A stretch of 64,000 nt of DNA, taken from an uncultured delta proteobacterium. Its GTDB lineage: Bacteria; Myxococcota; Myxococcia; Myxococcales; Myxococcaceae. Shown one piece after another: positions 23,243 to 64,000 of this stretch. The DNA is taken from NCBI GenBank assembly GCA_963771175.1, contig CAVYSY010000026.1:320001-384000 (forward strand), read 5' to 3'. The notes beneath the pieces are model-generated. The model saw only the letters and a list, made by a program, of their open reading frames with translations, was not told the origin of the DNA and searched no databases. Numbering within the stretch: position 1 is the first letter of the stretch; each line of letters begins with the position of its first letter. The translations under genes were made by a program, and so were the position numbers.

Positions 23243-23316
23243 GCCCTCGAAACGGCGGAGGCCCGGACACGCGGTGCGCGCCGGGCCTCCCCTCTCCTAC
23301 CGTCTGGGCCGTGGGC

Positions 23317-57430: not shown

Positions 57431-58207
57431 CTACCGCCGCTTCACCGCGAAGGGCCCGAAGGCCTGGTCGGCCGGCATCACCTCGACGAGGTTGATGTTC
57501 ACATGGGCCGGTCGCGACGCCGTCCACACCACGATGTCCGCGATGTCCCGCGCGGTGAGCGGCTCCATGCCCGCGTACGTGGCGTTGGCGCGCGAGGCAT
57601 CGCCCTTGAAGCGCACCAGTGAGAACTCGGTCTCGACCATGCCGGGCTCGATGTTGGTGACGCGCACCCGGGTGCCGATCAGGTCCGCCTTGAGGTTCTG
57701 GGAGAACTGGTGGACGAAGGCCTTGGTGGCGCCGTAGACGTTGCCGCCCGGGTACGGGTAGGTGGCCGCCACCGAGCCGATGTTCACCACGTGCCCGCGG
57801 TTGCGCGCCACCATGCCCGGCAGCAGCGCGCGCGTCACGTAGAGCAGGCCCTTGCAGTTGGTGTCGATCATCCGCTCCCAGTCATCGAGCGAGCCCTGGT
57901 GCGCGGGCTCGAGCCCCAGGCCCAGGCCGGCGTTGTTGACGAGGATGTCCACCTCGGAGAAGGGCGGGGAGAGCCGGGCGAGCGAGTCCTCCACCTCGCG
58001 GCGCTGGCTCACGTCGAAGAGGAGGACGTGCGAGGGACCCGGCAGGCGCGCGGCGAGCTCCTCGAGGCGGGACTCGCGGCGGCCGGTGAGGACGAGGCGG
58101 GCACCAGCGGCGGAGAGGAGCTCGGCGCAGGCCGCGCCGATACCGGAGCTGGCCCCCGTGACGAGGGCGGTCTGGCCCGAGAGAGGGCCTTGGACAGGAG
58201 CGTTCAT
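57431..58207 (-). CDS. Short-chain dehydrogenase (YdfG-like)
   Basis: TGASSGIG, NNAG, YGATK, IEPGMVETEFS. Confidence 0.9.
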   Translation of the reverse strand: MNAPVQGPLSGQTALVTGASSGIGAACAELLSAAGARLVLTGRRESRLEELAARLPGPSHVLLFDVSQRREVEDSLARLSPPFSEVDILVNNAGLGLGLEPAHQGSLDDWERMIDTNCKGLLYVTRALLPGMVARNRGHVVNIGSVAATYPYPGGNVYGATKAFVHQFSQNLKADLIGTRVRVTNIEPGMVETEFSLVRFKGDASRANATYAGMEPLTARDIADIVVWTASRPAHVNINLVEVMPADQAFGPFAVKRR

Positions 58208-58227
58208 GGAGCCGCCATACTACCGGC

Positions 58228-59614
58228 TCACGGGGAGGGCCAGCGCTCCAGTTCCATCTCGTCGAGGAACACCGTGTGGTTGTTGCCGTTCAGCGGCTGG
58301 ACGGCGATGCCGCGCACGGCCTTCAGGGTGAGCCCGTCGTTGGGTGCGCCCGCGGGCTGCCAGTCGTTCCGCCGGGTGAAGGCCGACAGGGGCACGCTCA
58401 TCCACTTCCAGCCGACGTTGTCATCCTTGAAGCCGAACTCGAAGCGCTCGGCCGAGTCCGCGCTGTCGCCGTTGTCCCACAGCTCCAGGCGGAAGGAGTC
58501 TCCGGTGTTGGTGCCGTGGAACCAGAAGTTCAGGTAGTGCCCCTGGCTCCAATCCAGGGGCGTCTCGAAGGTGCGCGCGAGGCTGGCCTGCGACGAGCTG
58601 GCGATGTCGTACTCCAGCACGAACGTGTTCCCCACGTGCCCATACTCATGCAGCCAGACGTTGAGCCGCGAGCCCGACCCGACCGACATCGTCCAGGTGC
58701 CGAGCGCCTCGAAGTCCTCCACCACCTCCTTCGGAGCGGCCAGCCCGTAGCGGACCTCGTCATAGAAGGAGACCATCGGCGAGCCCGGCCAGGTGAAGGA
58801 GCCCATCCAGTACTCGGTGCCCGGACCGACGCCGGGCCAGAAGTTCATGATGATCCGCCCCGGATGGGAGGGCAACGACCCCAGCGGGCCCGTCGCGCTC
58901 TGGACACGCGAGCCGTCGACGTACCAGTGGAGGGCCTCGCGCGTCCATTCGAGGCCGTAGGTGTGGAAGGCCTCCGCGGCGTCGAAGGGAAGGTCGAGCC
59001 CCGCGTAGTGGCCCTGTCCGTTGACCACGTAGTTCATCTGCATCCGCCGGGTGTTCAGCCCGACGAAGGCGATGTCGATGCCATCCCAGCGCGTATTCTC
59101 AGCCGGGCCCGTGTAGATGCTGAAGGACGTCAGCGTGCCCGAGCCGCGCGCGGGCTTCATCCGGACCTCGTAGCGCCCGTAGCCGTGGAGCCGCGTGGAG
59201 GCGACCTCGCCCGAAGCATAGGGGCGGCCGGAGCACCCGTCCGGGCACGGCGTCTTGTCGAGCTGCAGCTCCAGGATCCCACCGTTGGCCCGCACGTGGT
59301 CGGCACGCCAGCCGGCATTGAAGTCCTCGCTGCTGGCCCAGCCATCCGAGCGGCGCCAACGCGTGGTGTCGAACGTGTCGAACGTGTCGTCGAAGGTCCC
59401 AGGGCCCTCCAGCCAGGAGAGTGTCGGGGGGCCACCGTCGACGCCGCCGACATAATCGCTACTTCCCGCGTCCGTCCCACCAGCCACCGCCACCTCCTCC
59501 CTGCCCCACACCTCCATCGGAGGTGGAGATGCCGTCGTAGTCGGACCAGCGGCAGCCCGCCTGGAGCAGACCGGTCGCCAGCAGGAGCAGTCCCCATCTC
59601 ACGTTGCGAGCCAT
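58228..59614 (-). CDS. GH16 (lichenase-like) lipoprotein with C-terminal CBM-like domain; catalytic glutamates absent
   Basis: Lipobox LQAGC; YASGE, YGRYEVRMKPA, FHTYG, IMNFWPG; WDGIDIAF in place of WDEIDIEF. Confidence 0.8.
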
Positions 59615-59730
59615 GTGTCGCACCCTCCTTGGACGCGCATGGCGCCGAATCTACCAAGCCGGGCCCTCCCGGGTGCGCCGCCTGGCTGCTCGCTCTCCGA
59701 AACCGTCCGAAAAACTCCGGGAAAATGCCG

Positions 59731-59759
59731 CGTCAGGATTCCGGGAACCCAGCGTCCAT
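59731..59759 (+). promoter_or_regulatory. Putative ECF promoter of the tRNA array
   Basis: CGTCAG-GATTCCGGGAACCCAG-CGTCCAT (16-nt spacer). Confidence 0.7.
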
Positions 59760-59782
59760 TACCCGTGAAAGGAGCGGTGACG

Positions 59783-59956
59783 ATGCGGACGATGACGAAG
59801 CAGAGCACGATGAATCCGAAGCAGCACAGCAACGCCGGTTTCAAGCCCGTGCGCTTCAGCATCCGCCCGGTCCCCGCCTCCTCGTATCCGCTGTATCCCG
59901 TCGACGGGCGCGATTCCCGCGGCTCCTTCGACCCGCCACACCCTGGCCTCTTCTGA
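59783..59956 (+). CDS. Putative leader peptide (57 aa) of the tRNA array
   Basis: AAAGGAG RBS; MRTMTKQSTMNPKQHS...SFDPPHPGLF*; ends just before a terminator hairpin. Confidence 0.55.
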   Translation: MRTMTKQSTMNPKQHSNAGFKPVRFSIRPVPASSYPLYPVDGRDSRGSFDPPHPGLF

Positions 59957-59983
59957 TGCTCCGCCTCCCGAAGTGAGGCGGCG

Positions 59984-60028
59984 GCGAAAGAGGCCGGGTT
60001 CCCGAAAGGGGCCCGGCCTCTCGCTTTT
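59984..60028 (+). terminator. Intrinsic terminator/attenuator hairpin
   Basis: GCGA-AA-GAGGCCGGG-TT-CCC GAAA GGG-G-CCCGGCCTC-TCGC followed by TTTT. Confidence 0.65.
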
Positions 60029-60044
60029 CCAGCCTCACTCCTCC

Positions 60045-60131
60045 GGGGACGTAGAGCGTTACGCGAAGACGCACCGGCCTGTAGAGCCGGAGCCTTCAAT
60101 GGCCCGCTGGGTTCAACTCCCAGCGTCCCCA
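60045..60131 (+). tRNA. tRNA-Tyr(GTA)
   Basis: Acceptor GGGGACG/CGTCCCC; anticodon arm CCGGC-CTGTAGA-GCCGG; long variable arm; T-arm CTGGG-TTCAACT-CCCAG. Confidence 0.8.
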
Positions 60132-60150
60132 CTCCGCAGTGGAAGTACGG

Positions 60151-60168
60151 GTTCTCTGACAACTGAAT
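60151..60168 (+). promoter_or_regulatory. boxA-like antitermination element
   Basis: GTTCTCTGACAACTGAAT resembles rRNA-operon boxA (GYTCTTTRACAA). Confidence 0.45.
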
Positions 60169-60211
60169 CGCAGTGGTGAAGCGCCGCCTGCCCTCAAGCG
60201 AGGCGGCACAC

Positions 60212-60282
60212 GCCTCCGTAGCTCACGGGTAGAGCATCCGCCTCTTAAGCGGACGGTGAGGGTTCGAGTCCCTCCGGAGGTA
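60212..60282 (+). tRNA. tRNA-Lys(CTT)
   Basis: GCCTCCG/CGGAGGT; TCCGC-CTCTTAA-GCGGA; GAGGG-TTCGAGT-CCCTC. Confidence 0.88.
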
Positions 60283-60289
60283 CTCATAC

Positions 60290-60363
60290 GCGGATGTCGT
60301 CCAGCGGCAGGACACCGGCCTCCCAAGTCGGAAACACGGGTTCGAATCCCGTCACCCGCTCCA
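60290..60363 (+). tRNA. tRNA-Gly(CCC)
   Basis: GCGGATG/CACCCGC-T-CCA; CCGGC-CTCCCAA-GTCGG. Confidence 0.88.
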
Positions 60364-60368
60364 CCTAT

Positions 60369-60439
60369 TCCGGGATCGTCCAGCGGCAGGACGGCGGGCT
60401 CTGACCCCGCAGACGCAGGTTCGAATCCTGCTCCCGGAG
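60369..60439 (+). tRNA. tRNA-Gln(CTG)
   Basis: TCCGGGA/TCCCGGA; GCGGG-CTCTGAC-CCCGC. Confidence 0.88.
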
Positions 60440-60462
60440 CTGTCGCAGCACAGGCAACACAT

Positions 60463-60534
60463 TCCACGGTAGCTCAATGGCAGAGCAGGCGGCTGTTAAC
60501 CGCAAGATTGGGGGTTCGAGTCCCTCCCGTGGAG
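60463..60534 (+). tRNA. tRNA-Asn(GTT)
   Basis: TCCACGG/CCGTGGA; GCGG-CTGTTAA-CCGC. Confidence 0.9.
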
Positions 60535-60539
60535 CAACT

Positions 60540-60615
60540 CGGGGTGTAGCTCAGTCTGGACGAGAGCGCGTGCTTGGGGTGCACGAGGTCGTCGGTTCGA
60601 ATCCGGCCACCCCGA
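60540..60615 (+). tRNA. tRNA-Pro(GGG)
   Basis: CGGGGTG/CACCCCG; CGTGC-TTGGGGT-GCACG. Confidence 0.9.
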
Positions 60616-60635
60616 CTCCGTTTCAACCGTTTCAT

Positions 60636-60709
60636 CTGGGTGTGGCTCAACTTGGTAGAGCGCGCGGTTCGGATCCGCGAGGTTGCAGGTTCAAATCCTG
60701 TCACCCAGA
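60636..60709 (+). tRNA. tRNA-Pro(CGG)
   Basis: CTGGGTG/CACCCAG; CGCGG-TTCGGAT-CCGCG. Confidence 0.9.
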
Positions 60710-60715
60710 CATTTC

Positions 60716-60789
60716 GCCTCCGTAGCTCAGGGGAACAGAGCGCACGGCTCCGGACCGTGAGGCCGCAGGTTCGAATCCTGCCGGGGGCA
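60716..60789 (+). tRNA. tRNA-Arg(CCG)
   Basis: GCCTCCG/CGGGGGC; CACGG-CTCCGGA-CCGTG. Confidence 0.9.
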
Positions 60790-60798
60790 CAGCTTCGA

Positions 60799-60870
60799 TG
60801 CGGAGTGGGACCGGACGTCCCACCGGGTCTCATACGCCTGGGTCGCAGGGTTCGACTCCCTGCTCCGCAA
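60799..60870 (+). tRNA. tRNA with CAT anticodon (Met, fMet-like or Ile2), atypical D-arm
   Basis: TGCGGAG/CTCCGCA; CGGGT-CTCATAC-GCCTG; CAGGG-TTCGACT-CCCTG. Confidence 0.7.
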
Positions 60871-60882
60871 CTTCTTCATCAT

Positions 60883-60955
60883 GCCGTCCTGGCGTAGGTG
60901 GTCCGCGCGCCCGTCTGAAGAGCGGGAGGACCGGGTTCGATTCCTGGGGACGGCA
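60883..60955 (+). tRNA. tRNA-Phe(GAA)
   Basis: GCCGTCC/GGACGGC; CCCGT-CTGAAGA-GCGGG. Confidence 0.82.
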
Positions 60956-60963
60956 CTCGTTTT

Positions 60964-61037
60964 GCTCCTGTAGCTCAGCTGGTAGCAGCACCGGTTTCGT
61001 AAACCGGGGGTCGTCGGTTCGAACCCGACCGGGAGCA
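60964..61037 (+). tRNA. tRNA-Thr(CGT)
   Basis: GCTCCTG/CGGGAGC; CCGGT-TTCGTAA-ACCGG. Confidence 0.88.
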
Positions 61038-61053
61038 CTGTTTCACGCAGCAT

Positions 61054-61125
61054 GTTGGCTGAAGGCAAAGGGTGAGCCACCGGTCGTGAATCCGGTTCCA
61101 GAGGGTTCGAGTCCCTCCAGCCGAC
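61054..61125 (+). tRNA. tRNA-His(GTG), irregular anticodon loop
   Basis: 8-bp acceptor with G-1:C73 (GTTGGCTG/CAGCCGAC); CCGG-TCGTGAAT-CCGG; GAGGG-TTCGAGT-CCCTC. Confidence 0.65.
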
Positions 61126-61132
61126 CTTCTTC

Positions 61133-61205
61133 GCACGCCGAGCCAGCTGGAGACGGCGTTGGTCCCACACACCAATTTCGCCGGGTTCGATCCCCGGGGC
61201 GTGCA
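61133..61205 (+). tRNA. tRNA-Val(CAC), non-canonical G8 and C33
   Basis: GCACGCC/GGCGTGC; TTGGT-CCCACAC-ACCAA; CCGGG-TTCGATC-CCCGG. Confidence 0.72.
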
Positions 61206-61226
61206 CTGCAACAGACTCCCCAACGC

Positions 61227-61301
61227 GTCCGCGTGGCCCAATCGGGAGAGGCGGCTGGCTCAAACCCAGCTCACGTGCGAGTTCGACTCTCGCCGCGGAC
61301 A
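61227..61301 (+). tRNA. tRNA-Leu(CAA) with short variable loop
   Basis: GTCCGCG/CGCGGAC; GCTGG-CTCAAAC-CCAGC; 6-nt variable region; GCGAG-TTCGACT-CTCGC. Confidence 0.8.
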
Positions 61302-61327
61302 TACCCCCCAAGAAGGACAACCGAGTC

Positions 61328-61870
61328 ATGGAGACACTGGTCCTCAACCAGTCCTATGAGCCCGTGGCCCGGATCTCCTGGCAGCGAGCGGTGATGCTGC
61401 TGTGGCAGGGGAAGGTCGAGGTGGTCGAGGAGTACGACGACCGCCTCGTCCGCTCCGTCACCGTCGAGATCCGGATGCCCTCCGTCATCCGCTTCCTGCG
61501 CGGCGCGCGTCGGGGCGGGCGCGGCGTGAAGTTCAGCCGCGACAACGTCTACATGCGCGATGGCTGCCGGTGCCAGTACTGCGGCCGGAAGGTGTCGCGC
61601 CCCGAGGCCACGTACGACCACGTCGTGCCCCGGGCCCAGGGCGGCCGTACCACCTGGGAGAACATCGTGATCGCCTGCGTGCCCTGCAACCAGAAGAAGG
61701 GTGGGCGCACGCCGGTGCAGGCGGGGATGGCGCTGCTCTCCGCTCCCGTGAAGCCTCGCAAGCTCACGGGTTCGGTGCAGCTCACCTTCGCCCACGAGAA
61801 GGGCATGCCCGTCTCGTGGAAGAAGTTCCTCCGTGACGTCGCGTACTGGCACACGGAGCTGGAGGAGTGA
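61328..61870 (+). CDS. HNH endonuclease (McrA-like) inside the tRNA array
   Basis: TLVLNQSYEP, PSVIR, FSRDNVYMRD..CQYCG, TYDHVVPRAQGG..TWENIVIACVPCNQKKG. Confidence 0.92.
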   Translation: METLVLNQSYEPVARISWQRAVMLLWQGKVEVVEEYDDRLVRSVTVEIRMPSVIRFLRGARRGGRGVKFSRDNVYMRDGCRCQYCGRKVSRPEATYDHVVPRAQGGRTTWENIVIACVPCNQKKGGRTPVQAGMALLSAPVKPRKLTGSVQLTFAHEKGMPVSWKKFLRDVAYWHTELEE

Positions 61871-62012
61871 GCGGCGGGTGAAGGGGAACCACCAGAGGTG
61901 GTTCCCCGGCTCTGCTCCGTGACAGGAGCAGTGCTGACAGGGAAGGCCAGAGGCGTTCCCGACACCCGTACGCCCCGCACGCCGGCAGGCGGGCCCTGCT
62001 GCCGGCATATTT

Positions 62013-62099
62013 GGAAGGTCGACGCCGGAGGCCCGGCGGCCCGCCTCGAAAGCGGTGCGGGCGCATGACGCGCTCGGGGTTCGAGTCCCTTGCCTTCTG
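62013..62099 (+). tRNA. tRNA-Ser(CGA)
   Basis: GGAAGGT/GCCTTCT-G; CCGC-CTCGAAA-GCGG; long variable arm; GGGG-TTCGAGT-CCCT. Confidence 0.7.
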
Positions 62100-62112
62100 T
62101 TCCGTCTCTTCT

Positions 62113-62200
62113 GGAAGTGTGAACTGGCGATGGCGCCAGGCCCCGTTGCTAGCGGGTGCGGACCGGCTTCCGGTCTGGGGTTCGAGTCCTCCGCCTTCCG
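62113..62200 (+). tRNA. tRNA-Ser(GCT)
   Basis: GGAAG../..CTTCC-G; CCCG-TTGCTAG-CGGG; variable arm GACCGG-CTT-CCGGTC; GGGG-TTCGAGT-CCTC. Confidence 0.7.
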
Positions 62201-62314
62201 TTCCTCTGCCCTCTTTCCGACGGTGTCGTGTGACCGCCGGACGGGTGAGCCCCCCGCCCCAGGAGCCTAGTGTCCCGCGCGCCCGGCATCCCCGCCGGGA
62301 AGGGGAAGACACAG

Positions 62315-62854
62315 ATGCGCGACTTCAAATTGGGACGCTGGGCGGTGTTCGGCCTCGTGCTCGCTGCTCCCGTGCTGGGTCTGGGCTGCGGCAATGACGA
62401 CGACGAATCGGAGCAGGAGAAGATCGAAAGGGGTCTTTCCCTCTCCCCCGTGCCCCTCAACCTGGACGGGAAGGACCGCGACCTCGTGGGCCTGGGCAGC
62501 TACATCGTCAACGCGCAGGCCGCCTGCAACGACTGCCACACCAACCCTCCCTTCGAGCCGGGAGGCGACCCCTTCAAGGGAGAGCCGGAGAAGATCAACG
62601 CGGCGCGCTTCCTCGGGGGTGGGACGCCCTTCGGCCCGACCCTCGTCTCGCCCAACATCACCCCGGATGCTTCCGGCAACCCGGGAGGCGCAGACTTCGA
62701 GGAGTTCCAGCGCTACATGCGCACCGGCAGGGAGGAGGACGGCGACATCCTCCAGGTGATGCCGTGGCCCATCTACAAGAACATGAGCGACCGGGAGCTG
62801 CGCGCCATCTACGAGTACCTGCGCGCCATCCCCCACGTCGAGTCCGGACCCTGA
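62315..62854 (+). CDS. Cytochrome c lipoprotein
   Basis: Lipobox GLGC; CNDCH heme-binding motif; SPNITPD, VMPWP..KNMSDRELRAIYEYL. Confidence 0.85.
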   Translation: MRDFKLGRWAVFGLVLAAPVLGLGCGNDDDESEQEKIERGLSLSPVPLNLDGKDRDLVGLGSYIVNAQAACNDCHTNPPFEPGGDPFKGEPEKINAARFLGGGTPFGPTLVSPNITPDASGNPGGADFEEFQRYMRTGREEDGDILQVMPWPIYKNMSDRELRAIYEYLRAIPHVESGP

Positions 62855-63004
62855 GCTGAAACGTCGGGGTCACAACCCCGTGAACCCTGGAAGTTCGGAA
62901 TCCACCATTTCCGCTCCGCACTGACGCGCGGCGTAGTGAACCCACCCGCGTGTCGGGCGCATGGATGCGCGCTGCAAGCAACCCCTACGCGGAAGGAGCG
63001 GCAC

Positions 63005-63211
63005 ATGGAATGGCTCGAGTTCGGTCGGTGGTCCCCGGAGGTGGAGAAGCGCCTCGCGCGCCAGGCGGTGCGCCTGAGTATCGCGGCCCAGCCCTCTCGC
63101 CCTCCCGCCCAGCATCCCGAGAGCGCCAGCGCCCGGGCCCGCCGGCTGGAGGCCCTGCTGCGGCAGACCCCAGCCTCCAACCCCTGGGGGCACCCCGCCG
63201 CCGAGTGCTGA
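63005..63211 (+). CDS. Small hypothetical protein
   Basis: GAAGGAG RBS; MEWLEFGRWSPEVEKRL... Confidence 0.4.
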   Translation: MEWLEFGRWSPEVEKRLARQAVRLSIAAQPSRPPAQHPESASARARRLEALLRQTPASNPWGHPAAEC

Positions 63212-63347
63212 GCGGCACGTCGGGGGCCGGGTCGGGAATGCGCCCGGGCGACAGGGATTGAATTGAGAGGTCCCGACGCGAGGTCGGGGTCCACCACTGC
63301 GATTCAGCACGCTAGAGTGCCCCTGCGCCGACGAGGCGTTCCCGACC

Positions 63348-64000
63348 ATGGCCACGAGGAAGAGCGAGGACAACGAGCGTCTCATCGACCGCGATCTCAC
63401 CGCGCTGGCGCGAGACGGGAAGCTGACGGCCGCGCACGGCGTGGACGGTCCGGTGACGGAAGTGCTGGGCCTGCTCACGCGAGGGGGCAAGCACCCGCTG
63501 CTCTCCGGGGAGCCCGGCGTGGGCAAGTCCGCCGTGGTGCAGGAGGTGGCGCGCCGCATCACCGAGGGCCGCGTGGACGCGGAGCTGGCCAACGCGCGCA
63601 TGGTGGAGGTGTCCGTCGCCAACATCCTGGCGCGCAGCACCCAGCGCCAGGCGGCGGAGAGCTTCGAGGAGTTGCTGGCGCTGGCTGAGCCGGCACCCCT
63701 GCCCCATCGTCTACATCCGGGACCTGCCCGCGGTCATCGGCGGGCCCCTGGCCCCCGTGGCCTTCCGCGCCCTGCGCACCGGGGGCATCCGCTTCATCTT
63801 CGAGACCGAGCCCAAGCGCGTGCAGGAGTTGCTGCGCGCGGACGAGGCCTTCGCCGAGCGGCTCCACCTCGTGCCCGTGCAACGAGCCGCCCGCCGAGCG
63901 GGCCCGCTGGATATTGGGCCGCGTGGCCGAGGAGCTGGAGCGCGAGCTGCACCTGCCCATCGACCCGGCGGCGTGCGACCTGACGCTGCGGCTGGCCTCC
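63348..64000 (+). CDS. ClpA/ClpB-like AAA+ ATPase (partial, frameshifted)
   Basis: RDLTALARDGKL, HPLLSGEPGVGKS Walker A; runs off the window end. Confidence 0.75.

Follow-up and report, generated by a model that had tools for sequence, protein, structure and literature searches.

A short region immediately upstream of a tRNA gene array in a myxobacterial genome is proposed here to be the cis-regulatory leader of that array, in which the progress of a translating ribosome would decide whether transcription continues into the tRNA genes. The region occupies positions 59708–60044 of the window, by which we mean the whole stretch of 64,000 nucleotides analysed (positions 320,001 to 384,000 of contig CAVYSY010000026.1, assembly GCA_963771175.1, from an uncultured member of the Myxococcaceae); coordinates are those of the plus strand unless otherwise indicated. 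It contains a leader open reading frame (ORF) that is conserved in the manner of translated sequence, two conserved and stable hairpins (hairpins 1 and 2) placed in a fixed geometry behind the stop codon, and RNA segments that can adopt two mutually exclusive folds. We tentatively favour a ribosome-sensing attenuator as the explanation, although we would stop short of calling it probable.

The window has a G+C content of 69%, and its nearest relatives are genomes of Archangium and Vitiosangium (Myxococcota). A scan of one genome per species gave seven matches, all from these two genera, which are referred to as related loci L001–L007. Counts out of eight comprise the window and L001–L007; counts out of seven refer either to the related loci or to the loci that possess hairpin 2. 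It should be noted that the eight leaders are related rather than independent and represent approximately three lineages, L001 being near-identical to the window. In 7/7 related loci a leader ORF of 50–62 codons is found 48–88 nt upstream of the tRNA-Tyr gene that opens a syntenic array; the leader peptide adjoins the array in every case and was found at no other site in the genome collection scanned. A blastn search of phage and plasmid collections returned generic tRNA matches only, none of which covered the leader.

The leader ORF

The leader ORF of the window (59783–59956) has 57 codons, from an ATG at 59783 to a TGA at 59954–59956, and encodes a peptide that begins MRTMTKQSTMNPKQH and ends PGLF. 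A Shine–Dalgarno site, GAAAGGAG (59767–59774), lies 8 nt before the ATG, with GAAAGGAGCGGTGACGATG invariant in all eight loci. The initial annotation, made from the letters of this stretch, had described such an ORF with its ribosome binding site (RBS) ahead of the first tRNA gene, and all the coordinates that it gave were found to be correct. The ORF is kept in frame in 8/8 loci, with lengths of 171, 171, 171, 186, 183, 186, 150 and 150 nt. The stretch from the Shine–Dalgarno site to the ATG is invariant, as is the TGA, and the stop is constantly 4 nt before hairpin 1. The G+C content at third codon positions (GC3) is 0.79–0.88 in the eight leaders, against approximately 0.5–0.58 at the first and second positions (GC1 and GC2); the values for the window are 0.56, 0.53 and 0.88 for GC1, GC2 and GC3, respectively. 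The kept frame, the high GC3 and the invariant positions of RBS and stop indicate that the leader is probably translated, as had been supposed, and at the sequence level they support the ORF as a real, translated and conserved element.

The peptide itself appears to be under little constraint. Between the three lineages, the proportion of non-synonymous differences (pN) in the leader is 0.20–0.28 and that of synonymous differences (pS) 0.23–0.38, giving a pN/pS of 0.5–1.2; for the HNH endonuclease gene of the same loci, pN is 0.04–0.05 and pN/pS 0.13–0.36. In L006 and L007 an in-frame deletion has taken out 12 central codons, the best-conserved internal motif included, with frame and stop retained. 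Conservation is confined to two islands, namely the first 16 codons (80–83% identical at the nucleotide level, and seldom changed at synonymous sites) and the last codons, where P-x-P-[GS]-L-F-stop forms the C-terminus in 8/8 loci. Amongst the five diverged loci that keep hairpin 2, identity is 84–89% in the non-coding spacer versus 40–65% in the middle of the ORF. A near-neutral peptide under a kept frame, GC3, RBS and fixed stop is the pattern expected of a regulatory leader ORF, and suggests that translation of the ORF matters and its encoded product hardly does.

Five full-length homologues of the peptide were found (58–63 aa, 58–95% identity). A profile search of 1.84 billion representative proteins gave nine matches at E≤0.001, seven of them of 45–63 aa; the two long matches (1508 and 3032 aa), which covered profile positions 16–42 seven to eight times over, were judged to be repeat or low-complexity sequence and were dropped from the alignment. 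The leader peptide has no match in Pfam, NCBIfam or the ESM Atlas, and AlphaFold2, run on a 12-sequence alignment, predicted neither secondary structure nor a fold (predicted local distance difference test score 64, predicted template modelling score 0.12). The nucleotides that encode the conserved C-terminal motif are the same as those of segment a, described below; lying next to the stop, the motif could slow termination, or its conservation may reflect RNA pairing of its nucleotides.

Hairpins and alternative folds

Hairpin 1 (59961–59981; arms 59961–59967 and 59975–59981, CCGCCTC/GAGGCGG) begins 4 nt after the stop, exactly where the initial annotation had placed an inner hairpin. Its stems are conserved in 8/8 loci, its loop alone varies, and it contributes −12.2 kcal/mol. 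Hairpin 2 (59984–60024) is terminator-like, having a GAAA tetraloop and being followed by TTTT (60025–60028); part of its 5' arm, 59988–59998, is referred to as segment d. The segment 59984–60028 has a folding energy of −33.1 kcal/mol, and only ten of 42,638 segments of 45 nt, taken from both strands, reach −33 kcal/mol or lower, which places hairpin 2 in the top 0.02%. Its sequence is single-copy within the window. The hairpin is kept in 7/8 loci (the window and six of the seven related loci), with invariant stems and a variable internal loop. For the whole of 59930–60044 the fold has a z-score of −3.5, and 0/200 shuffled sequences fold as well.

The tail behind hairpin 2 is less typical of a terminator. 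TTTCC is present in 7/7 related loci, and the U-tract is TTTT or ATTT, the latter in five related loci. Over 20 kb of this genome, U-rich sites of canonical terminator-like form show no enrichment (nine, versus 5.8 ± 2.3 in shuffled sequence). Of the suggestion that a GC-rich hairpin plus TTTT acts as a terminator, the hairpin stands, being present where it was predicted, stable and conserved, whereas the U-tract is short and weak and was not flagged by a terminator scan. Elsewhere in the window, on the minus strand at 23249–23293, a GC-rich hairpin of −34.9 kcal/mol is followed by GUUUC in the same architecture as hairpin 2; it may be an example of the form that terminators take in this genome.

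Segment a, the 5' strand of the proposed antiterminator, is the ORF end CCCTGGCCTCTT (59941–59952), of which GCCTCTTCTGA is invariant in 8/8 loci. The complementarity between GGCCTCTT (59945–59952) and AAGAGGCC (59988–59995), on which the switch was originally proposed, was confirmed, and the helix proved to be longer, with 11 bp between 59941/2–59952 and 59988–59998. A truncated transcript, 59940–59996, folds as the proposed antiterminator with −30.2 kcal/mol. When nascent RNA ending at the hairpin-2 loop is folded, the ORF end captures the 5' arm of this hairpin in 7/7 loci that have it; when, as the initial annotation had recommended, a ribosome footprint is imposed on the stop codon, all seven form hairpin 2. 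For the full-length free RNA the two folds are of similar energy, the antiterminator being the minimum free energy (MFE) structure in the window and the terminator in 6/7 loci.

A third arrangement involves the 5' leader of tRNA-Tyr (60029–60044), CCAGCCTCAC..., which is complementary to the 3' arm of hairpin 1 and in which TTTCCAGCCTC is invariant in 8/8 loci. Here GTGAGGC, from the 3' arm of hairpin 1 (59974–59982), pairs with the invariant GCCTCAC at 60031–60037, forming an extended helix that encloses hairpin 2.

A proposed ribosome-sensing attenuator

In the model that we tentatively favour, transcription would start in the conserved block some 45–75 nt upstream of the ATG, and the first cistron would be the 50–62-codon ORF, whose translation, rather than product, would count. 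A ribosome at the fixed TGA, 4 nt before hairpin 1, would cover segment a and melt hairpin 1; segment d, so freed, would pair with the 3' arm of hairpin 2, and hairpin 2 with its short U-tract would then stop transcription, or strongly reduce it, 17 nt before tRNA-Tyr. If ribosomes were lagging, stalled or absent, nascent segment d would pair with segment a (over 11 bp in the window), the base of the terminator could not close, and the polymerase would read on into the tRNA genes. Hairpin 1 may be an RNA polymerase pause hairpin, which would serve to synchronise ribosome and polymerase.

A number of observations weigh against this model, and most of them concern the pairing of a with d. The window and L001 have the 11-bp helix; five loci have a weaker helix or one in another register (in L003 and L005–L007 a different register includes G-U pairs and a bulge), and L002 has none. 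The outer pairs are retained in only 3/7 and 2/7 loci. Covariation in orthologous leaders had been named as a check on the model, and the eight-sequence alignment shows no compensatory change in the a:d helix or in either hairpin; for the hairpins this is uninformative, since both stems are invariant. As a control, the 64 nt upstream were shuffled in 300 trials per locus and the stability gained by sequestration of the arm was compared: shuffled sequences equalled or exceeded the real gain in 8/300 trials for the window and 5/300 for L001, and in 18/300, 90/300, 41/300, 5/300 (L006, with a different partner) and 26/300 for the others. The pairing thus exceeds chance by a small margin, and does so in only some of the lineages. 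At equilibrium the terminator fold (−49.6 kcal/mol) is far more stable than the a:d helix alone (−25.9 kcal/mol), so that read-through would need kinetic trapping.

Other difficulties lie with the terminator and its surroundings. A simple terminator scan did not call hairpin 2, which has 4 T in 8 positions where the scan demands 5 T in 8. The extended helix is the structure chosen by the MFE of 59930–60044 and by the RNAalifold consensus, and it places the U-tract in an internal loop. L002 lacks hairpin 2 altogether; hairpin 1 there abuts GTTTCC, and a terminating ribosome would melt this only hairpin, which implies the opposite logic. The idea that the Pro-rich end of the peptide (DPPHP) causes the stall did not hold up, as the DPP motif occurs in just two of the eight leaders, those of the window and L001. 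Finally, the spacer that separates tRNA-Tyr from tRNA-Lys contains an invariant block, which might be a small RNA or might, as an internal promoter or processing site, drive or process the later tRNA genes independently. With a promoter there, tRNA-Tyr alone would be under the control of the leader. Of the switch as originally conceived, then, the two mutually exclusive folds exist, but the a:d pairing erodes between lineages, lacks covariation and is weak relative to shuffled sequence.

Alternative explanations

The alternative that survives best, possible if on the unlikely side, is that the region is a processing or stability element in a single leader–tRNA precursor transcript, with constitutive read-through. 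The composite helix at 59974–60037 would then be the site of a cut by RNase III or RNase E, or would protect the 3' end of a small mRNA after an RNase P cut at tRNA-Tyr. The preference of both MFE and RNAalifold for the extended helix fits this at least as well as it fits a switch. Also in keeping with processing are the invariance of CCAGCCTC downstream of the U-tract in 8/8 loci, the weakness of that U-tract as part of a terminator, and the single-stranded, A/U-rich ATTTCC beside the stem, which resembles RNase E sites. However, processing leaves unexplained both the maintenance, under a drifting peptide, of a frame whose stop stays 4 nt from hairpin 1 and the invariance of the ORF end at synonymous sites, and L002 does without hairpin 2.

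Alternatively, the logic might be reversed, such that translation is required for read-through and stalled or uncoupled translation shuts the array off; this we consider rather unlikely. In the variants of this scheme the ribosome would either melt hairpin 1 or keep Rho off the second half of the ORF, which is rich in C and poor in G. The second half has a C/G ratio of 1.3–2.0 in 8/8 loci, and in the window 59860–59937 contains 38 C and 19 G in 78 nt, resembling a Rho utilization (rut) site, although the C-richness stems partly from Pro and Ser codons together with GC3 bias, and the strongly structured spacer would be a poor substrate for Rho. The single hairpin of L002 is more easily accommodated here, as its melting by a terminating ribosome would then favour read-through. 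Rho-dependent sensors based on an upstream ORF (uORF) are known, for example the uORF that regulates topAI-yjhQ (PMC12121999). Against the reversed logic, there is no obvious benefit in shutting off spare tRNAs when translation fails.

That the ORF is an ordinary small-protein gene with its own leaky terminator, producing a trans-acting peptide whose co-transcription with the tRNAs is incidental, seems distinctly unlikely. The conservation of the N-terminal 16 residues and of the C-terminal P-x-P-[GS]-L-F is what such a gene might show, and homologues are predicted as proteins in public sets, one being named 'hypothetical protein'. Set against this are a pN/pS of approximately 1, the tolerance of two loci for the in-frame loss of the 12 central codons, the lack of a predicted fold, and the invariable association of the peptide with the array.

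A chance open frame with chance hairpins in GC-rich intergenic DNA is hardly credible: long open frames are indeed common at 69% G+C (antisense frame −1 is also open in 8/8 loci) and GC-rich shuffled sequences fold well too, but three lineages whose upstream flanks cannot be aligned share the frame, RBS, stop and GC3 periodicity, and hairpin 2 stands amongst the most stable 0.02% of segments.

Leader codons and the tRNAs of the array

The codon content of the leader shows a further relationship to the genes behind it. Codons read by the tRNAs of the same locus's array account for 34/57 in the window and for 32/57, 19/57, 46/62, 43/61, 45/62, 31/50 and 39/50 in L001–L007, respectively. Expressed as a share this is 56–78% (33% for L002, the array of which is decayed), versus a background of 0.21–0.47. 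The first 15 codons are cognate in 12–14 cases (14/15 in the window; 8/15 in L002). The background consisted of 20,000 random, overlapping stretches of the same length, drawn from 82 sense-like ORFs that were chosen by composition and are not annotated genes. The value of the window's leader was reached by 83 of the 20,000, and those of L003, L004, L005 and L007 by none. When the background was matched on G+C at codon positions 1 and 2 (about 1,500–2,400 stretches), 14/2,238 reached the value of the window and again none reached those of L003–L005 and L007.

Given the peptide, synonymous codon choice shows no bias toward the anticodons of the array (p = 0.03–0.79), and the enrichment therefore lies in amino-acid content: the leaders are poor in Ala, Leu and Asp, lack Glu, and are rich in Pro, Ser, Thr, Met, Lys, Asn, Gln, Phe and Tyr. 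The leader has no stretch in which one regulatory codon is repeated, and no co-evolution was seen between leader codons and the gain or loss of tRNA genes across the loci. L001 retains CAG although tRNA-Gln was not detected there, and TGG occurs in L003 and L005, neither of which has a tRNA-Trp.

It can be speculated, at rather low probability, that the leader acts as a gauge of many tRNAs, that is, as an attenuator in which all codons served by the downstream array would be regulatory. On this reading, a shortage of any tRNA of the array would stall a ribosome in the leader, leaving the ORF end free and the terminator blocked, and fresh, divergent spare tRNAs would be made. Stalling might be caused by starvation, by tRNA-cleaving toxins (from competitors or from phage defence) or by antibiotics, and the gate would close again once decoding was restored. 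The cognate counts (14/15 of the first codons and 34/57 overall in the window, and up to 39/50 elsewhere) suggest the idea; the restriction of the bias to the amino-acid level, the relatedness of the orthologues and the lack of co-evolution weaken it.

The upstream block

Similarity between the loci starts at 59708, with a conserved block (59708–59756) that is a candidate promoter or operator. In the six loci other than L001 the block is 72–91% identical, versus 25–35% further upstream. Since alignable sequence begins approximately 75 nt before the ATG, the unit would begin there and must carry its own promoter. No separate promoter could be accommodated between hairpin 2 and the array, as only 17 nt separate the end of the T-tract (60028) from tRNA-Tyr (60045). 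The block contains two A-tract repeats, CGAAAAA (59708–59714) and GGAAAAT (59720–59726), spaced 11–12 nt apart; GGAAAAT-like repeats at approximately −75 and −63 from the ATG can be recognised in 8/8 loci. CGTCAGG (59731–59737, −52 from the ATG) and GCGTC (59752–59756, −31) are fixed in all eight. A scan of 59000–62500 for sigma-70 promoters gave no site. The block may be a promoter of the extracytoplasmic function (ECF) sigma factor type, to judge from the consensus GGAAAA-N16/17-CGTC.

The tRNA array and neighbouring genes

The array (60045–61301) comprises tRNA genes for Tyr, Lys, Gly, Gln, Asn, Pro, Pro, Arg, Met, Phe and Thr, an odd tRNA-like gene, and those for Val and Leu; ARAGORN reports 13 genes. 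The odd gene (61055–61126) was detected by relaxed ARAGORN and Rfam and has an 8-nt anticodon loop, the anticodon being given as 'gtga' (His|Ser), and an Rfam tRNA score of 31.5 bits. The content of this slot varies, L001 having an unrelated tRNA-Asp(GTC) there. Other tRNAs of the array are also atypical in Rfam: tRNA-Tyr scores 23.5 bits, and at E≤1 those for Met and Val yield no match to tRNA. In 7/7 related loci a syntenic array is present, with 8–16 tRNA genes per locus by default ARAGORN. Its content differs between them: L001 has no tRNA-Gln, L004 has tRNAs for His and Trp, Arg(ACG) or Arg(GCG) occurs in four loci, and the array of L002 is interrupted and reduced.

In the spacer of approximately 80 nt between tRNA-Tyr and tRNA-Lys (60133–60211), the block CTCTGACAACTGAATCGCAGTGGTGAAGCGCC is invariant in 8/8 loci and has no counterpart in Rfam; behind it lies a hairpin, GCCGCCT/AGGCGGC, with one compensatory change in L004. 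In two of the eight loci one and the same two-gene cassette stands in the array before tRNA-Val (L002, 6856–8033, after tRNA-Trp; L007, 7502–8454, after tRNA-Thr). Its products are a Cys-rich protein, the N-terminus of which is hydrophobic and resembles a signal sequence, and a protein of approximately 170 aa; neither has a match in Pfam.

Inside the tRNA cluster lies the HNH endonuclease gene (61328–61870; Pfam HNH, E=1.6e-15). Its protein is 91–98% identical in 7/7 loci, pN/pS for the gene spans 0.04–0.36 when all comparisons are taken, its domain resembles the HNH domains of IscB and Cas9, and its stop is followed by a strong hairpin (61873–61917, −29.8 kcal/mol). Behind it, tRNA-Ser(CGA) and tRNA-Ser(GCT) (62013–62200; relaxed ARAGORN and Rfam) form a conserved tail. 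The downstream flank contains the HNH gene and a ClpB-like gene in 7/7 loci and a cytochrome-c-like ORF in 4/7; the upstream flank of the window is common only to L001 and, in part, L002.

Two neighbouring genes show breaks in frame. The ClpB-like ORF (63348–63983) is a single open frame in the window and matches all seven related loci in three different frames, which points to indels in the sequence of the window or to an incorrect frame beyond approximately residue 119. The divergent gene upstream of the leader, encoding GH16 and CBM11 domains (58228–59517, minus strand), has its lipoprotein-type signal peptide MARNVRWGLLLLATGLLQAGC in another frame (59459–59623), which ends in a Gly-rich run; the break is either a frameshift, making this a pseudogene, or an assembly error.

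Comparison with known systems

The attenuators of trp, his, leu, thr and pheA resemble the element, as proposed here, in having a translated leader, a possible pause hairpin and mutually exclusive folds between which the position of the ribosome decides. These classical amino-acid attenuators have leaders of 14–32 codons with runs of a single codon, plus a segment that enforces termination when the leader is untranslated. The leader described here has neither the codon run nor such a segment, and its untranslated RNA should read through.

By analogy of architecture, the closest working analogue is the BmrB leader (53 aa) of B. subtilis bmrCD, translation of which is required for antibiotic-induced read-through of a terminator (PMC4191407). 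The likeness lies in the long leader ORF (53 aa, compared with 50–62 codons here), the alternative stem-loops, the terminator, putative in our case, ahead of the regulated genes and the absence of a single-codon run; for bmrB, a general slowing of translation has been proposed to favour the anti-termination fold (PMC4191407). In bmrB, however, the ORF itself contains the terminator and an ABC transporter is the product of the regulated genes, whereas here the hairpin follows the stop and tRNA genes lie behind it. The two leaders share no sequence similarity.

As regards regulated genes, the nearest comparison is the trn operon (L-array) of Anabaena sp. PCC 7120, a supernumerary tRNA gene array that is normally silent and is induced when translation is impaired (PMC8421152, where L-arrays are defined as long arrays of supernumerary tRNA genes spread by horizontal transfer), which is the physiology that the initial annotation had proposed for the present array as a spare set under a sensor of failing translation. 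Control of the Anabaena array is ascribed there to direct repeats at the promoter. In the text of that paper 'attenuat*', 'terminator' and 'leader' do not occur, and Myxococc* and Archangium are not mentioned; the GGAAAAT-like repeats of our upstream block have no evident similarity to the repeat motif quoted in it. The arrays described here differ further in that their 13–18 genes occupy a single conserved site on the chromosome, next to the HNH and ClpB-like genes, and in having a leader ORF. No report of a leader peptide or uORF ahead of a tRNA array or operon was found in the open-access full-text literature searched.

The conserved C-terminal peptide motif at the stop recalls TnaC, the ErmL family and the topAI-yjhQ uORF (PMC12121999), although no resemblance to a known arrest motif was noted, none having been specifically sought. 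Unlike in sensors of that type, its conservation here may reflect RNA pairing of the same nucleotides. With T-box riboswitches the element would share a coupling of tRNA status to transcription read-through; the sensor here, however, would be the ribosome and not direct contact between tRNA and RNA. A T-box as such was rejected, since an Rfam cmscan of 58000–64000 at E≤1 gave tRNA-type and chance-level hits and no cis-regulatory family.

Implications

The one studied case of control over a spare tRNA array in bacteria is that of Anabaena, where translational stress switches the array on via a presumed repressor. A stress-induced spare set is plausible in view of phage tRNAs, for which a role in countering tRNA-targeting defences is documented (PMC10264068 and PMC11555353). 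If the present leader is an attenuator, attenuation would extend beyond the genes for amino-acid synthesis and drug efflux to tRNA genes themselves, and would provide a direct and simple link from failing translation to tRNA supply. If, in addition, the match between leader codons and array is real, the leader would be a natural sensor of the depletion of many tRNAs, with a bearing on tRNA-targeting toxins and phage defence; should the leader truly gauge the tRNAs behind it, this would be the first leader-peptide attenuator known to control tRNA genes, and would act as a homeostat of their supply. The element, which is small, is conserved in cultivable, harmless myxobacteria (Archangium gephyra, A. 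lansingense and Vitiosangium).

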